The notes beneath the pieces are model-generated. The model saw nothing but the letters and a program-made list of their open reading frames with translations, was not told where the DNA came from and did not search any database. A stretch of DNA of 6,069 nt, taken from the IMG/VR virus record IMGVR_UViG_2713896896_000013, one strand, 5' to 3'. Positions within the stretch are counted from its first letter, which is position 1; the number at the start of each line of letters is the position of its first letter. Made by a program: the position numbers and the translations under genes. The DNA is from a virus. Its lineage: Duplodnaviria > Heunggongvirae > Uroviricota > Caudoviricetes. This document shows, in pieces, positions 1 through 5,815 of this stretch.

Positions 1-1428
1 GTGAAATTATTCAGATTCTCTAAAGTAAAAATTGCAGAGCTGCCAACGCCGGAGCATGGACAGGCCGAATATGGTGATACGGAGGTTAACGGGCTGCGTG
101 TCCGTGTGGGTTCGTCTGGTGTGAAAAGTTTCTGCATTTCCCGTAAGCGTAACGGAAAATTTATTCGTGCAACGCTGGGGCGTTTTCCTGATCTGAGCGT
201 GGATAATGCCAGGGCGAAAGCAATGGAACTTCTCGGAGAAGTCGCCACAACGGGGATAAATCCGAACATAGCGAAGCGCACGAACAACAAGGCCATGATA
301 ACGCTGAATGAGGCACTTGAAGCCTACATAAAAAATCGTGGCCACCGCCTGAAACCCGCCACAGAAAAACAGTACCGCAGCATATTACAGAATTATTCCG
401 GTGACTGGATGGTGCATACCCTCGCCAGTATTACCCGCGAACGTGTGGAACAGCGGCATAAGGCCGTTACCGACGGGGCTGTATGGTTCGGTGCTGATAA
501 AACCACGTTACGGGCTGGGGTTGGTACAGGAAGCAAGGCACAGGCCGATTTATGGGCGCGTGCGCTGCGTGCTGTGTGTCGGTTTGCGCATGATCATTAC
601 CGTGATGATGCGGGTAATACTCTTTTACCGGATCCGCCGACGCTTGTACTGAGCACAAAACGGCAGTGGCACGGAACGGTAAGAAAAACGGAACGTATCC
701 GCCTGCATGATTTTCCCCGCTGGTTTGCTGCTGTAGCTGCTGTACGCGACCAGGGCGAACAGGAAAGGGATGATATAGCGGTGACGGTATGTGATGCCGT
801 GGAAATGGCGCTTTTTACCGGACTGAGGAAATCAGAAATTTTTGGCCTTACGTGGGATCGCGTGAATATGGGCGGTCGTTTTTTCTGGATAGACACCACG
901 AAAAACGGGGATCCGCTCGAATTACCGATTACTGATACGTTGCGGGAAATGTTCCACCGTCGACTGAAAATAAAAAACGCTGATGATGTTCTGGTGTTTC
1001 CTGGTGTGAAGGGCGTTATCCAGGAGACACGGCACATCATAGACCGGATAAGCGCGGCTACTGTTCCTGAGTCGAACGATGAAATGCTCTCCCCTGTACC
1101 ATTCAAATGGCACGATGCGCGCCGGACGTTCGGGACGGTTGCCGAACTGGTGGGCGTGGGTAATTACATCCTCAAGCGCCTGATGAATCACCGTACTATG
1201 CGAAGTGCCGACGTAACGCAGGGATATTTACATTTTGGTGCTGATGAACTGCTGGAGCCAGCGTCACGGATAGAACGGGCAATTCTGGAACATGCCGGGC
1301 TGGTGGAGAGTAAAAAATCTATCGATGCGCAATTGCTTTCCGCACTGGAGAGTATGAGTGACAGTGAGAAACGCGCATTACTATTTAGTATCGTTAATTC
1401 AAATGGTGGTTTGAATGTCAGAAAATAA
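1..1428 (+). CDS. int: Tyrosine-type site-specific integrase (phage integrase family, P4-like)
   Basis: 475-aa ORF starting at GTG at window position 1, so the upstream RBS is not visible and the N-terminus may be slightly incomplete. The N-terminal region resembles an integrase arm-binding domain (GLRVRVGSSGVKSFCISRKRNGKF...). The C-terminal half carries the tyrosine recombinase catalytic signature in order: R in LFTGLRKSE, H-x-x-R in WHDARRTFGT, catalytic Y in VTQGYLHF. Stop TAA at 1426-1428. A hand count of one stretch (61-120) gives 35/60 G+C. Confidence 0.9.
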   Translation: MKLFRFSKVKIAELPTPEHGQAEYGDTEVNGLRVRVGSSGVKSFCISRKRNGKFIRATLGRFPDLSVDNARAKAMELLGEVATTGINPNIAKRTNNKAMITLNEALEAYIKNRGHRLKPATEKQYRSILQNYSGDWMVHTLASITRERVEQRHKAVTDGAVWFGADKTTLRAGVGTGSKAQADLWARALRAVCRFAHDHYRDDAGNTLLPDPPTLVLSTKRQWHGTVRKTERIRLHDFPRWFAAVAAVRDQGEQERDDIAVTVCDAVEMALFTGLRKSEIFGLTWDRVNMGGRFFWIDTTKNGDPLELPITDTLREMFHRRLKIKNADDVLVFPGVKGVIQETRHIIDRISAATVPESNDEMLSPVPFKWHDARRTFGTVAELVGVGNYILKRLMNHRTMRSADVTQGYLHFGADELLEPASRIERAILEHAGLVESKKSIDAQLLSALESMSDSEKRALLFSIVNSNGGLNVRK

Positions 1429-2170: not shown

Positions 2171-2242
2171 TCCTGTCTTCAAGACTTCCCCATCGCTAAA
2201 TAACGTATACCTGTTCTTAATCAGAAGTATACGGTGATACTC

Positions 2243-2431
2243 ATGCATTTAGAAAAAATGACCCGCAAAGAAGCCGCCGAGCATTTGGGGGTAAGTGTCC
2301 AGACTCTTGCTAACTGGGCGTGTACTGGCAAAGTAAAAATCCCTTTTCATAAGCTGGGGCGCAAAGTGCTGTATATGCGCACTGATCTCGATGCTTATAT
2401 TGCATCCACTCGCAGAACGCAGACGGTGTAA
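2243..2431 (+). CDS. alpA: AlpA/excisionase-family helix-turn-helix DNA-binding protein (putative excision or transcriptional regulator)
   Basis: Small ORF with stop TAA at 2429-2431. The translation MTRKEAAEHLGVSVQTLANWACTGKVKIPFHKLGRKVLYMRTDLDAYIAS matches the excisionase/AlpA-type HTH pattern (KEAAE-LGVS...T-..W......P..K-G.). The start is uncertain: in-frame candidates are GTG 2234, ATG 2243 and ATG 2258, none with a strong SD; 2258 gives the most family-typical N-terminus. Confidence 0.75.
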   Translation: MHLEKMTRKEAAEHLGVSVQTLANWACTGKVKIPFHKLGRKVLYMRTDLDAYIASTRRTQTV

Positions 2432-2448
2432 GGGGGGGAGTGATGGCA

Positions 2449-2482
2449 CATAAAACAAAGGCGACCCGGATCAGAGGTCGCC
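2449..2482 (-). terminator. Rho-independent terminator-like hairpin, functional on the minus strand
   Basis: Perfect 7-bp GC-rich stem GGCGACC (2460-2466) / GGTCGCC (2476-2482) with a 9-nt loop. Read on the minus strand it is followed by UUUGUUUUAU (complement of 2449-2459). On the + strand the hairpin is followed by agtggg, which is not U-rich. It lies about 90 nt downstream of the minus-strand gene at 2571-2750. Confidence 0.4.
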
Positions 2483-2570
2483 AGTGGGAATACACTAAAC
2501 ATAAGCCCGGCCATCATAGCGTTTTGCTGGCTGGTGGGCAATGTGATCAGTGTGGTGGCTTGCTGGTGGG

Positions 2571-2750
2571 CTATTCCTGTTCTTTGGCCTTGCGGCGCTG
2601 GCGGCGTTTGATCTCGCCTTTTGCGGCAGTAACTAAAAAACCGGCTGTACTTTCGCCAGGTTCTTTAAGTTGCTCAATATCATCCATTACTTCATGTGGG
2701 ATTCTGACAGTTGTCATTTGTGATTTTGCGTTCTTTGCACCAGTTGCCAT
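2571..2750 (-). CDS. Small ribbon-helix-helix-like DNA-binding protein (59 aa), putative transcriptional regulator
   Basis: Minus-strand ATG at 2748-2750 preceded by a strong SD AGGAGA (complement of 2758-2763) with a 7-nt spacer; stop TAG (complement of 2571-2573). Product: MATGAKNAKSQMTTVRIPHEVMDDIEQLKEPGESTAGFLVTAAKGEIKRRQRRKAKEQE. The pattern is a short beta-strand (TVRIP), helix, loop, helix and a basic tail, as in CopG/Arc-type RHH proteins. The 114-aa version in the ORF track adds a non-protein-like N-terminus with no RBS. Confidence 0.5.
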   Translation of the reverse strand: MATGAKNAKSQMTTVRIPHEVMDDIEQLKEPGESTAGFLVTAAKGEIKRRQRRKAKEQE

Positions 2751-2939
2751 TTCTGGATCTCCTAAAAATTGGTGTATGTCAGTATACGCAAAAAAAATGA
2801 TAAAAAAAGGCTTGAAGTGTATTTCACCAGTGAGTAAATTAAAAAGCAAAGGTGAAATACACCTGAAAGAGCAACGCCCCGCAGTGCTCGCAACACATGC
2901 AGGGCGTCTAACCACAAACCGTTAACAGGAGTAACGATT
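2751..2939. promoter_or_regulatory. Divergent promoter/operator region between the RHH-like gene (minus) and the icd-like operon (plus)
   Basis: Candidate + strand sigma70 promoter: -35 TTGAAG (2812-2817), 17-bp spacer, -10 TAAATT (2835-2840). Perfect 12-bp inverted repeat GTGTATTTCACC (2817-2828) / GGTGAAATACAC (2851-2862) with a 22-bp spacer, overlapping the -35/spacer and the predicted start region. Candidate minus-strand -10 TATACT (complement of 2781-2786). The promoter hexamers are weak-to-moderate matches only. Confidence 0.35.
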
Positions 2940-3137
2940 ATGGCTGTAAAACAGCATACCCCACGCCTAGCGCACACACAAACCGCCTTTGTATGGCGTT
3001 TTCTGGCACTGAGTGCCGGAGAATCCCAGATCATCCACGTCACCGCATGGACGGAACGCGAAGCGCGTAACCGTTGCCCGTCCGGCTGTATTGCCGTATT
3101 CGCTGCCCGTATCCGTCAGGGGGTGTGCCATGCCTGA
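2940..3137 (+). CDS. Small protein (65 aa), tentatively Icd-like (host cell division inhibitor Icd family)
   Basis: ATG at 2940 with SD AGGAG (2927-2931) and an 8-nt spacer; stop TGA at 3135-3137. The translation MAVKQHTPRLAHTQTAFVWRFLALSAGESQIIHVTAWTEREARNRCPSGCIAVFAARIRQGVCHA recalls the signature I remember for Icd-like small proteins of P4-like islands (F-W-R-F-x-A ... E-x-E-A-R ... F-A-A-R). The family assignment is from memory, not a search. Confidence 0.55.
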   Translation: MAVKQHTPRLAHTQTAFVWRFLALSAGESQIIHVTAWTEREARNRCPSGCIAVFAARIRQGVCHA

Positions 3138-3450
3138 TATATCAAAATACCAGTACCTGATTAATCCGCATTTTAACTGTGAGCATGATATTGCTAAAAA
3201 GGTTTATTCCGCTGCGGATATGGCTACTGACAATATATCAATGGGTATTGCATCAATTGGTAACCTGATGTGGCATGCGGCAGAAAATGAGGACTATGAC
3301 GAACAGACCATGCGCATTGACATGGGGAATATTGGCTTGTTACTGGCAATGCTTGGGCAGTTTGATATTTCGTTACGGTGCACCATTGAAAATGCCACAG
3401 ATGCATTAAATGCCATAAAGAAAGCGAATACTGATTCAAATCGGGGATAA
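3130..3450 (+). CDS. Hypothetical protein (106 aa)
   Basis: ATG at 3130 overlaps the upstream stop by 8 nt (ATGCCTGA), implying translational coupling; stop TAA at 3448-3450. Product MPDISKYQYLINPHFNCEHDIAKKVYSAADMATDNISMGIASIGNLMWHAAENEDYDEQTMRIDMGNIGLLLAMLGQFDISLRCTIENATDALNAIKKANTDSNRG is acidic with no motif I recognise. The longer track ORF from 3013 would overlap the icd-like gene out of frame and is not favoured. Confidence 0.6.
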   Translation: MPDISKYQYLINPHFNCEHDIAKKVYSAADMATDNISMGIASIGNLMWHAAENEDYDEQTMRIDMGNIGLLLAMLGQFDISLRCTIENATDALNAIKKANTDSNRG

Positions 3451-3456
3451 ATAATC

Positions 3457-3756
3457 ATGAGAACATATTTATCTGGCTTGACTGCCAGCGGTTATGCACA
3501 CCCCAAAATTATCCCCGGCGCTATTTATCTGGATAAGAACGGTAACAGAGTAACGGTAAAAGAACTGATGTTTGATCGTGTTTATTTTATCCGTGATGGA
3601 TATTCATTTCTTAGTTCGCTGAACGTGGAGATCTTTATTTGCAGATTCCGGCGGGAAATCCCGACTTCCAGAAATAACCATGTGTCACGTGTGGATGTGG
3701 ATAAAAAACTACAGGAACTGAAAAACATGATTGCCGCGTGGAGAGAGCAGAAATGA
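3457..3756 (+). CDS. Hypothetical protein (99 aa)
   Basis: ATG at 3457 with an SD-like GGGGA about 10 nt upstream. Its stop TGA (3754-3756) overlaps the ATG of the replication gene (3753-3755) in an ATGA arrangement. No recognisable motif. Confidence 0.6.
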   Translation: MRTYLSGLTASGYAHPKIIPGAIYLDKNGNRVTVKELMFDRVYFIRDGYSFLSSLNVEIFICRFRREIPTSRNNHVSRVDVDKKLQELKNMIAAWREQK

Positions 3757-5570
3757 AAAAAGCGCCAAATTTAAAACACCAGCCGCGTGACAAAATGACG
3801 GAAGTCATCATTTTTGCGGGTAGTGATGCGTGGGCACATGCGAAACAGTGGCAGGAACAGGACGGGCGACTGGCTGGCGATAACGTCCCTCCTGTCTGGC
3901 TTGGAGAGCAACAACTTGCCGAACTGGACAACCTGCAAATCGTACCGGACGGACGCTATCGCGTGCGTCTCTATCAGGCGGGGTTATTGCGTCCGGGGCT
4001 TGTTAATACCATCGGGCAGAAACTGGCAGCGGCAGGTGTCAGGGATGCTGATTATTATCCTGAAGGAATGCACAGCCAGAAACGGGAGAACTGGCGCGAA
4101 TATCTGGAACGTGAGCGGGGAGAGCTGGCGGAAAAGAAAAAGGTAGTTGAACTGCCTGTAAAGAAAAAAGAGCGGGTAAAAGACGATAACGCTTCATCAC
4201 TGGCACTTAACCAGATGGGAGCAAGTCAACGCGGCGAAGTTCTCCTGGCACATTATGGCGGTGAACTGGCGATTCATGCTGACTCTGACACTGTTCACCA
4301 TTACAACGGCGTTGTATGGGAGCCAGTACAGGATAAAGAATTACAGCGAGCTATGGCACAGATTTTCATTGATGCGGAGATCAGCTATTCGCAGAACGCC
4401 ATTAAATCGGCGGTCGATACCATGAAGTTAAGTTTGCCTGTTATGGGGAATACAGCCCGTAACCTGATTGGATTCAGTAACGGGGTATTTGATACCAGAA
4501 CAGGTAATTTTCGGGAGCATAACAAAAACGACTGGTTGTTAATTGCCAGTGAATTACCTTTCAGCCCACCAGCAGAGGGGGAAACGCTGGCAACACATGC
4601 GCCGAATTTCTGGAAGTGGTTACGCCGTTCGGTGGCTGAGAATGACCGCAAGGCGGATCGCGTACTGGCTGCATTATTCATGGTGCTGGCGAACCGGTAC
4701 GACTGGCAGTTATTCATTGAGGTAACAGGTCCAGGGGGAAGTGGTAAAAGCGTGATGGCGGAGATTTGCACCATGCTGGCGGGTAAGGCCAACACAGTAT
4801 CGGCAAGCATGAAGGCGCTGGAAGATGCAAGGGAACGCGCGTTAGTGGTTGGCTTTTCGCTGATTATCATGCCGGATATGACCCGCTACGCTGGTGATGG
4901 GGCAGGAATTAAGGCCATTACAGGCGGTGACAAGGTGGCAATTGACCCAAAACACAAAGCCCCCTACTCAACGCGTATTCCGGCAGTAGTGCTGGCGGTT
5001 AACAATAACGCCATGTCATTCAGTGACCGCAGCGGGGGGATCTCACGTCGTCGGGTGATATTCAATTTTTCGGAAGTTGTACCGGAGAACGAACGCGATC
5101 CAATGCTGGCGGAAAAAATAGAAGGTGAGCTGGCGGTAGTGATTCGCCATCTGCTTACACGGTTTGCTGACCAGGACGAAGCCAGACGCCTGTTATATGA
5201 GCAGCAGAAATCTGAAGAAGCACTGGCGATAAAGCGAGAGGGGGATTCGCTGGTGGACTTCTGCGGCTATCTCATGGCGTCGGTAATGTGTGATGGCCTG
5301 TTAGTGGGTAATGCTGAAATTGTGCCATTCAGCCCACGCAGGTATCTCTATCATGCCTATCTGGCTTATATGAGGGCACATGGGTTTGGTAAACCTGTAA
5401 CACTGACGCGCTTCGGTAAAGATATGCCGGGGGCAATGGCGGAATATGGCAGGGAGTATATGAAACGGAAAACGAAGCACGGTTTGCGTTCAAACGTGAC
5501 ACTGACGGAGGAATCAGAAGACTGGATGCCATCATGTGTATCGGTCACTAATGACGATAGCAAAAATTAA
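3753..5570 (+). CDS. Replication initiator with D5_N-like region and SF3-type P-loop helicase domain (P4 alpha-like / PICI Pri-Rep-like primase-helicase family)
   Basis: 605-aa ORF from ATG 3753 (the track gives a GTG 5 codons upstream at 3738). Walker A motif GPGGSGKS in FIEVTGPGGSGKSVM; candidate Walker B hydrophobic run plus Asp in LVVGFSLIIMPDM. The segment IGFSNGVFDTRTGNFREHNKNDW resembles the D5_N motif that precedes SF3 helicase domains in P4-family primase C-terminal-domain proteins. It is immediately followed by an iteron array. Stop TAA at 5568-5570. Confidence 0.88.
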   Translation: MKKAPNLKHQPRDKMTEVIIFAGSDAWAHAKQWQEQDGRLAGDNVPPVWLGEQQLAELDNLQIVPDGRYRVRLYQAGLLRPGLVNTIGQKLAAAGVRDADYYPEGMHSQKRENWREYLERERGELAEKKKVVELPVKKKERVKDDNASSLALNQMGASQRGEVLLAHYGGELAIHADSDTVHHYNGVVWEPVQDKELQRAMAQIFIDAEISYSQNAIKSAVDTMKLSLPVMGNTARNLIGFSNGVFDTRTGNFREHNKNDWLLIASELPFSPPAEGETLATHAPNFWKWLRRSVAENDRKADRVLAALFMVLANRYDWQLFIEVTGPGGSGKSVMAEICTMLAGKANTVSASMKALEDARERALVVGFSLIIMPDMTRYAGDGAGIKAITGGDKVAIDPKHKAPYSTRIPAVVLAVNNNAMSFSDRSGGISRRRVIFNFSEVVPENERDPMLAEKIEGELAVVIRHLLTRFADQDEARRLLYEQQKSEEALAIKREGDSLVDFCGYLMASVMCDGLLVGNAEIVPFSPRRYLYHAYLAYMRAHGFGKPVTLTRFGKDMPGAMAEYGREYMKRKTKHGLRSNVTLTEESEDWMPSCVSVTNDDSKN

Positions 5571-5581
5571 ACTTATGGAAT

Positions 5582-5815
5582 AACTGTTCACCACTGTTCA
5601 CCCTGTCATAAATATCTTTTATATCAGTATATTATAGGGTGAACAGTTGTTTATGAACTGTTCACCAAACTATTCACTGTTCACCTTTTTGATTGTTTAT
5701 TGAGCTTCAAGGGTGAACAGTGGTGAACAGTTGGTGAATAGTTTTTGTGAAACTGTTCACCCCTTAACATTATGAATTAAAAGAGAAAATATCAAAAGGT
5801 GAACAGGTGAAGGGT
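5582..5815. repeat. Iteron array, candidate replication origin (9-mer GGTGAACAG / CTGTTCACC, both orientations)
   Basis: CTGTTCACC at 5584-5592, 5594-5602, 5658-5666, 5677-5685 and 5753-5761. GGTGAACAG at 5638-5646, 5712-5720, 5722-5730 and 5798-5806, plus a degenerate GGTGAATAG at 5733-5741 and partial copies (ctgtca 5603-5608, ctattcac 5670-5677, ggtgaaggg 5806-5814). Tandem copies are phased at 10-11 bp. AT-rich stretches at 5606-5637 and 5762-5797 could act as unwinding elements. The core octamer TGTTCACC is, as I recall, the alpha-protein binding iteron of the P4 ori and crr. Confidence 0.75.

Follow-up and report, generated by a model that had tools for sequence, protein, structure and literature searches.

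The window analysed here, a stretch of 6,069 nucleotides from the IMG/VR virus record IMGVR_UViG_2713896896_000013 (Caudoviricetes), is the left half of an Enterobacterial phage satellite of the phage-inducible chromosomal island (PICI) type. Our analysis is concerned with one minus-strand gene in the middle of the window, which encodes a 59-residue protein of the YlcI/YnfO family with a predicted ribbon-helix-helix (RHH) fold, and with the 189-bp intergenic region (2751-2939) that separates this gene from the divergent operon, beginning with an icd-like gene and ending with a primase-helicase gene. The comparisons that follow have been made over a set of 64 loci from one-genome-per-species data, with Escherichia coli examples added; the features of the window are collected in Table 1.

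The original prediction, made from the letters of the window, had described the RHH gene as the only credible minus-strand gene, with a strong Shine-Dalgarno sequence, an intrinsic terminator of its own and a position divergent from the operon, and all of these signals are present at the locus. The open reading frame (ORF) matches the NCBIfam model NF041551 (YlcI/YnfO family) over the whole profile (positions 1-42 of 42; E 9.2e-18), its score of 64 bits exceeding the cut-off of 30, and phrog_949 matches the protein over its full length (E 2e-20). "YlcI/YnfO family protein" is also the RefSeq annotation of the corresponding 180-nt coding sequence in relatives of the island within E. coli genomes, and 179 close homologues are found in Enterobacterales. 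The family is narrow: of 1.84 billion cluster representatives searched exhaustively with a profile, only 90 match at E <=0.001, and no match to the protein occurs in 50,697 phage records. Pfam DUF3950 (PF13132), which matches three of 54 family members, YlcI and YnfO of E. coli K-12 among them, does not match the 59-residue protein at E values up to 1. As for the uniqueness of the gene, the claim holds for protein genes, but a conserved structured RNA is probably encoded on the same strand at about 2866-2946.

The gene faces away from the icd-like-to-primase operon, and its Shine-Dalgarno sequence has a GGAG-type counterpart at the equivalent position in most related loci. Its transcript is predicted to end 88 nt past the stop codon, at a hairpin (GGCGACC..GGTCGCC) that is followed by TTTGTTTT; a terminator-like hairpin is located within 220 nt of the RHH stop codon in 39 of the 65 related loci. 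The terminator of this transcript is unidirectional, since on the plus strand a T-tract is lacking after the hairpin, and transcription arriving from the side of alpA should therefore not stop there. The RHH gene is monocistronic in 55 of 64 loci, and cargo that is co-transcribed with it (9/64 loci) is not general; in one Salmonella island (L072, 543-1188), genes of the TumE and HVO_A0114 families are located behind the RHH gene on its strand, with an AntA gene on the opposite strand, possibly as accessory or defence cargo whose expression accompanies that of the repressor. A longer reading of the gene, as a 114-residue ORF with a GTG start (2571-2915), was rejected, its extension spanning the promoter and operator region and not being conserved as protein. 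The gene has also been found on a few 10-17-kb "plasmid" records that resemble excised islands; three of these (H16, H17 and H23; 10.5-17 kb) were deposited as non-mobilisable plasmids and are possibly satellites in their excised, circular form, captured in assemblies.

The RHH-like pattern that had been read from the sequence is borne out by structure prediction and fold search, both of which yield the strand-helix-helix arrangement, about 45 residues long, of RHH proteins. The AlphaFold2 model (monomer, 44 homologues; mean predicted local distance difference test score 88) consists of an extended N-terminal segment, a helix at residues 19-28, a loop that contains G32-E33-S34, and a second helix at residues 35-58, with the loop residues forming the G-x-S/T/N turn that opens helix 2; among the 44 homologues, E33 and S34 are invariant and G32 is conserved in at least 90%. 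The best structural matches of the model are the RHH antitoxins TacA, MazE and ParD, with CopG-family proteins among the top fold matches. The C-terminal basic helix, GEIKRRQR, is strongly conserved. Several other family members (P0123, P0126, P0128-P0130, P0133, P0159, P0165 and P0168) are 100-130 residues long, a C-terminal helical extension that recalls the tetramerisation domain of Mnt being located in place of the basic tail.

One motif, absent from the rest of the window, occurs exactly three times in the intergenic region, within a span of 93 bp; we refer to its copies as operators O1, O2 and O3. Their general form is (G)TG-N5-CAC, 11-13 bp long. In about 60 loci, which represent more than 20 genera, the sites recur at fixed offsets from the RHH ATG (Table 1), and their positions coincide with those of two predicted back-to-back promoters. 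The rightward promoter, of the form TTGAnn-(16-18)-TAnnnT, recurs in 61 of 66 loci at a constant distance of 61-62 nt from the RHH ATG, with O3 either overlapping its -10 or sitting directly after it. From this computed geometry, a protein that occupied O1, O2 and O3 must repress both divergent promoters.

The identity of the protein that would read the operators can be approached through their variation. The central N5 varies from locus to locus, and the three copies of a locus change in step; such concerted change requires a trans-acting factor whose specificity differs between modules. The operators vary together with the predicted β-strand of the RHH protein: SQMTTVRI is accompanied by GTGAAATACAC, SKKLEARV by GTGTCAGCCAC, SQQLNARF by GTGAATCGCAC, SQKMSARV by CTGGCACCCAC, SLQVSVRL by GTGAACACCAC, SQQIVSRV by GTGAATGCCAC, SKRFDVRV by GTGTCGGACAC, S(A/S)LK(A/S)RV by GTGTGGCCCAC, and K(L/V/I)QARA by TGGAnTCCAC. 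When 55 non-redundant modules were sorted into 16 operator classes (a separate, shift-tolerant clustering over-merged the classes and was rejected), operator class agreed best with the strand segment, at an adjusted mutual information of 0.79; the values for helix 1 and helix 2 did not exceed 0.52 and 0.49, respectively. Different operators occur in 33 module pairs that have helix 2 in common, but in only 6 pairs with a common strand, and there the difference amounts to 2-3 nt. The same is seen in a natural chimera from Salmonella (P0101), which is identical to the window-type protein P0002 from residue 25 onward and belongs to the SLQVSVRL type in residues 5-24: its locus contains GGTGAACACCAC three times, as had been predicted beforehand from residues 5-24.

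The other proteins of the island do not follow the operators. AlpA proteins that are 95% identical go with different operators (L029 as against L013 and L014), and the operator set of the window is found with AlpA proteins of 57-72% identity or with unrelated integration genes (L002, L005), with Icd proteins of 46-48% identity (L001, L005), and with different replication proteins. Since the operators are independent of AlpA, Icd, the integrase and the replication genes, these proteins can be excluded as the binder. The specificity would lie in the N-terminal arm, the β-strand and the first turns of helix 1 (residues 5-24), with variable residues at positions 12 and 14 and an invariant Arg16. 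The covariation of the operator core with strand residues also lends indirect support to the mode of binding expected of RHH dimers, whose paired strands enter the major groove and read the bases. The comparative evidence strongly indicates that the RHH protein binds the three operators in 2751-2939, overlapping both divergent promoters; repressor and operators would have co-diversified into at least 16 specificity types, in the manner of phage immunity types.

A second conserved element is located on the minus strand between O3 and the icd start, and is probably a cis-antisense RNA of about 80 nt directed against the icd translation start. RNAalifold assigns to it 25 consensus pairs, 15 of them with compensatory double changes, and the strand is indicated by the alignment itself: canonical pairs occupy 96.4% of cells when the element is read as a minus-strand RNA (125 G-U cells) and 80.9% when it is read as a plus-strand RNA, with consensus energies of -56.7 versus -42.6 kcal/mol and mean single-sequence energies of -35.9 versus -22.6 kcal/mol. 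In its 5' hairpin, the element is complementary to the start codon of icd and to the Shine-Dalgarno sequence before it, and a TAnnnT hexamer, often with TGn in front, is located 7-8 nt upstream of the element. With a covariance model, the element was located on the RHH strand at about 66 loci, half of which were outside the model-building set, and at neither the ylcI nor the ynfO locus of K-12. Rfam holds no family for the element and gives no C4 or isrK match, while its symR match, the best one, and its R1162 antisense match are far under the gathering scores and no membership is claimed for them. Within the same area, a small conserved hairpin (CGTTA-ACAGGAG-TAACG, 2920-2936) carries the icd Shine-Dalgarno sequence in its loop and forms on both strands; its stem shows compensatory changes in other loci, from CGTTA/TAACG to TGTTA/TAACA.

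Table 1. Features of the window, in order of position; promoters, operators, terminator and RNA are predictions.
Feature	Position	Strand	Remarks
Tyrosine integrase gene (int)	1-1428	+	
AlpA-type HTH_17 gene (alpA)	2234-2431	+	Convergent with RHH gene; Pfam HTH_17, E 1.5e-12; TIGR01764
Intrinsic terminator of RHH transcript	2452-2482	-	Stem 2482-2460, T-tract 2459-2452
Gene of 59-residue RHH protein (YlcI/YnfO family)	2571-2750	-	ATG 2750-2748; MATGAKNAKSQMTTVRIPHEVMDDIEQLKEPGESTAGFLVTAAKGEIKRRQRRKAKEQE
Shine-Dalgarno sequence AGGAG	2763-2759	-	8 nt upstream of RHH ATG
Operator O1, TGACATACACC	2771-2781	-	Fused to -10 of leftward promoter; offset -31 from RHH ATG
RHH (leftward) promoter -10, TATACT	2781-2786	-	GTATAC(T) here in about 50/66 loci
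Rightward early promoter	2812-2840	+	-35 TTGAAG 2812-2817, 17-nt spacer, -10 TAAATT 2835-2840
Operator O2, GGTGAAATACAC	2817-2828	-	Abuts or overlaps rightward -35; offset -76
Operator O3, GGTGAAATACACC	2851-2863	+	Just after rightward -10; offset -98 to -112 in related loci
Candidate cis-antisense RNA, about 80 nt	2866-2946	-	Between O3 and icd start
3' GC-rich hairpin of antisense RNA	2908-2873	-	Terminator-like, U-rich tail
Icd-like gene	2940-3137	+	First gene of operon; NCBIfam NF033153, E 1.8e-17
Operon: icd-like, phrog_15327, DUF4222, D5/P4-type primase-helicase	2940-5570	+	Tightly packed, ORFs overlapping or adjacent
Possible -10 of antisense RNA, TATGCT	2958-2953	-	Inside icd codons 4-6
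D5/P4-type primase-helicase gene, 610 residues	3738-5570	+	Pfam D5_N, DUF5906, Pox_D5

In the remainder of the window, a plus-strand ORF of 228 codons (1415-2101), located between int and alpA and overlapping the integrase stop, is without a Pfam, NCBIfam or PHROG family match; ORFs that are weakly similar to it fill the equivalent slot in several related islands. About ten iterons, ACTGTTCACC/GGTGAACAGT, are arranged in both orientations around an AT-rich stretch just downstream of the primase gene (5580-5810), a region that is most likely the replication origin of the island; a weak match to the Rfam family MIR1508 at 5655-5744 was rejected as an artefact of the iteron repeats. A near-identical island of about 11 kb, found in E. 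coli F1140, adjoins a tRNA-Ile gene, and its last gene is a prohead protease/capsid fusion. DNA related to the segment 2200-3200 of the window is contained in 1253 of 5426 complete E. coli genomes.

The same arrangement occurs in EcCICFT073, the prototype of the Gram-negative PICIs, where a complete RHH module is located between alpA and the primase gene: a YlcI/YnfO gene, the operators GGTGTGGCCCAC (twice) and CTGTCCCCCACC, the RNA element and an Icd-like gene. The island occupies 15931-26655 of the E. coli CFT073 locus L071, with the RHH gene at 18474-18653 on the minus strand; a 57-residue basic ORF is located downstream of it on the same strand (18243-18416). The small genes carry the RefSeq locus tags C_RS30120 and C_RS30125, which are late additions. 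In this island, published experiments have shown AlpA to be an activator that is switched on by the helper phage, and its overexpression alone induces excision and replication (PMC6092414); a later paper names the RHH protein only as "prophage-associated" (PMC13612085), and the zone has been described as holding Bro-network genes and immunity RNAs (PMC10111431). Our search of the literature on YlcI, YnfO, DUF3950 and PICI repressors found no functional study.

Modules of this kind also coexist within single genomes. Xenorhabdus innexi carries four (L018, L032, L036 and L068), each with a different operator class, and in three further loci (L040, 9526-10047; L045, 9217-9738; L029, about 9992) a second RHH/icd module of different specificity is located about 4.5 kb away from the first one, suggestive of satellites in tandem. 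None of 16 co-resident pairs share an operator class, against a background of 13.6%, but the difference falls short of significance (P about 0.1). That so many specificity classes exist is suggestive of immunity between satellites.

We consider it probable, at roughly 75%, that the locus encodes an autoregulated RHH repressor of the icd-like-to-primase operon, with the antisense RNA as a second layer of control. The RHH protein would bind the three operators, probably as one dimer each; occupancy of O1, at the -10 and start of its own promoter, would bring about negative autoregulation, while occupancy of O2, on the -35 and spacer, and of O3, on the start region of the rightward promoter, would block transcription from the icd-like gene to the primase gene. 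The antisense RNA, which looks constitutive, would probably block the translation of transcripts that escape repression. Induction is the least supported step of this mechanism, and most likely does not involve inactivation of the repressor protein: because AlpA suffices for induction, the repressor would be bypassed instead. As the scan of 2200-3200 found no plus-strand terminator between alpA and the icd operon, AlpA-driven transcription, known from EcCICFT073 to be switched on by a helper phage, could enter from the left, antisense through the RHH gene, and continue into the operon, thereby bypassing the repressed promoter and interfering with the synthesis of the repressor; this passage of AlpA read-through across the repressor gene is pure inference on our part.

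Several points weigh against this reading. The leftward promoter has no recognisable -35, its upstream tract being T-rich, and the rightward promoter of the window is an 8/12 match, under the threshold of the promoter scanner. The N-terminal codons of the RHH gene and the operators are only 60-160 bp apart, and with such close physical linkage part of the covariation could be co-inheritance; a global Mantel-type rank correlation gave 0.29 for the strand, 0.33 for helix 1 and 0.32 for helix 2, and thus no discrimination, which we attribute to the saturation of the distances and to everything being linked. With regard to the fold, the 59-residue protein has no Pfam family above threshold, with only a few distant family members weakly matching Arc, RHH_1, RHH_5, CopG_antitoxin and TacA1 (E 3e-4 to 5e-3), and a profile search of all sequences of solved structures in the PDB gave no relevant match to it. 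The hhalign comparison with Arc and Mnt reached a probability of 1-8% and is not significant; in favour of the RHH reading, its alignment is in register, with the loop G32-E33-S34 and the R-x-P-x-E-V motif aligned, Arg16 placed on Arc Arg13, and Met12 and Thr14 placed on Arc Gln9 and Asn11. These three residues of Arc are its base-contacting positions. Moreover, AlpA alone induces EcCICFT073, so that the repressor is not the sole gate of that island. The fold, the operator architecture, the covariation and the RNA structure are results of computation, whereas DNA binding, repression, expression of the RNA and the read-through are inferred from them.

In its way of working, the proposed repressor module is close to the immI region of phage P22, which combines the RHH repressors Mnt and Arc with Pant and the sar antisense RNA. 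In both cases, a small, autoregulated RHH repressor is divergent from the operon it represses (in our case, by prediction), with operators over back-to-back promoters and a short antisense RNA over the ribosome-binding site of the downstream gene, and the strand motif R-x-P-x-E-V is in register, Arg16 corresponding to Arc Arg13. The two differ in the operators, three 11-13-bp sites here versus one of 17-21 bp in P22, in the 59-residue form being without the Mnt-type C-terminal tetramerisation domain, and in the regulated genes, which are an Icd-like and primase operon of a satellite here and the antirepressor of a phage in P22. We present the likeness as a functional analogy and claim no homology beyond the superfamily.

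Two further comparisons can be made. YlcI of the K-12 prophage DLP12 and YnfO of Qin share with our protein the family NF041551, the RHH-like N-terminal pattern and the divergent position next to an operon, but they are only about 14% identical to it, and their loci have neither the GTG-N5-CAC triplet nor the antisense RNA element. Both genes (ylcI, L003 6252-6446; ynfO, L004 4757-4990) adjoin a lambdoid cos site and are divergent from nohD and nohA, which encode the terminase small subunit, with other repeats, CATCTAC twice and the palindrome ATGATAATAATTATCAT, at these loci. The immI region of P1 (c4 RNA, icd, ant) and the CI RNA of P4 resemble the locus in having an icd-type first gene, in an immunity zone, whose translation start is controlled at the level of RNA; however, C4 and CI are trans-acting and are processed from the sense transcript, while the RNA here would be cis-antisense, and no RHH partner is known at the equivalent position in those systems.

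Among the alternatives to a repressor that keeps the island quiescent, the first is a copy-number controller, in which the RHH protein and the antisense RNA would limit the expression of the primase operon during replication and have no role in quiescence. In plasmid pMV158, copy number is set by CopG together with the antisense RNAII, and the likeness is that the operon of a replication initiator is under the joint control of an RHH repressor and an antisense RNA, the latter aimed, in our case, at the start of translation of the operon with the replication-protein gene. Autoregulation through O1 would make the dosage of the gene follow copy number, and 10-17-kb circular "plasmid" records do carry the gene. 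CopG, however, is the first gene of the operon it represses and is co-transcribed with rep, whereas the RHH gene is divergent and monocistronic, with a terminator of its own; neither the diversity of specificities nor the integrated, helper-dependent lifestyle has a counterpart in pMV158, and many specificities fit immunity between co-resident elements better than copy control. We regard this explanation as unlikely.

The original prediction had proposed a master repressor, in effect of the kind of Stl, that keeps the satellite silent until it is lifted by a helper phage. The gene is indeed divergent and located at the junction of the integration and replication zones, the operators are located over the early promoter, and the conserved basic helix GEIKRRQR could be a docking surface; with Stl and Rpr of Gram-positive PICIs (PMC6092414), the gene shares the transcriptional divergence beside the replication module and the presumed task of silencing that module. 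On the other hand, Stl and Rpr are unrelated to the RHH protein in fold and size, and stl and rpr are co-oriented with int, whereas in the window int and alpA are both on the plus strand and converge on the RHH gene. In EcCICFT073, which has the same module, the helper switches on alpA and AlpA alone induces (PMC6092414), and Gram-negative PICIs are induced through AlpA; the family comprises about 16 DNA specificities on a protein that is otherwise nearly invariant, and nothing points to a helper anti-repressor, possible as one is. Release by a helper anti-repressor appears improbable to us, and of the original claim we retain an RHH repressor acting on the intergenic region, as the comparative evidence strongly indicates, but leave aside the word "master", the published helper-responsive switch being AlpA.

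It is very improbable that the protein is an antitoxin-type RHH protein, serving as the antidote or regulator of a toxin (the Icd-like division inhibitor or a neighbour) without a role in the life cycle of the island. The best structural matches are antitoxins, the annotation of the first regulated gene is that of a cell-division inhibitor, and the Salmonella island L072 has a TumE/HVO_A0114 pair behind the RHH gene; nevertheless, no toxin is co-transcribed, the gene being monocistronic in most loci and having its own terminator and no co-oriented neighbour in the window, the C-terminus is a short basic helix and not a toxin-binding extension, and the regulated operon continues into the primase gene. 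Least of all do we favour the possibility that the repeats are read by another factor (AlpA, the primase or a factor of the host) or function as a hairpin in RNA, with the RHH protein having an unrelated function: O2 and O3 form a 17-nt inverted repeat in the window that could fold, and O3 was flagged as terminator-like, but the hairpin/terminator reading was rejected, the two sites being direct repeats in most classes, and moreover the RHH promoter carries a third copy, a single host species can have different operators, and the sites track the RHH strand independently of AlpA, Icd, int and the replication genes.

If the autoregulated RHH repressor is viewed in the context of the whole group of islands, a broader proposal can be made, which we put forward as tentative: that Gram-negative PICIs, EcCICFT073 among them, have their missing immunity repressor in this protein, with at least 16 co-evolved specificities making the satellites orthogonal or immune to one another, backed up by a cis-antisense RNA and overridden by AlpA read-through with no anti-repressor. 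The paper that defined these islands left the existence of a repressor open (PMC6092414), and a familiar kind of regulator is here sited at this acknowledged gap of the field. Gram-negative PICIs spread virulence and anti-phage defence genes, and their only known regulator is the activator AlpA; our analysis supplies a concrete repressor candidate, with predicted operators, promoters and antisense RNA, that is present in the model island EcCICFT073, as well as a predicted recognition code that relates strand positions 12, 14 and 16 to the N5 core of the operators. If the operator classes are immunity types, they would explain the coexistence of related satellites in one genome, and would also provide small, orthogonal repressor-operator pairs for engineering.

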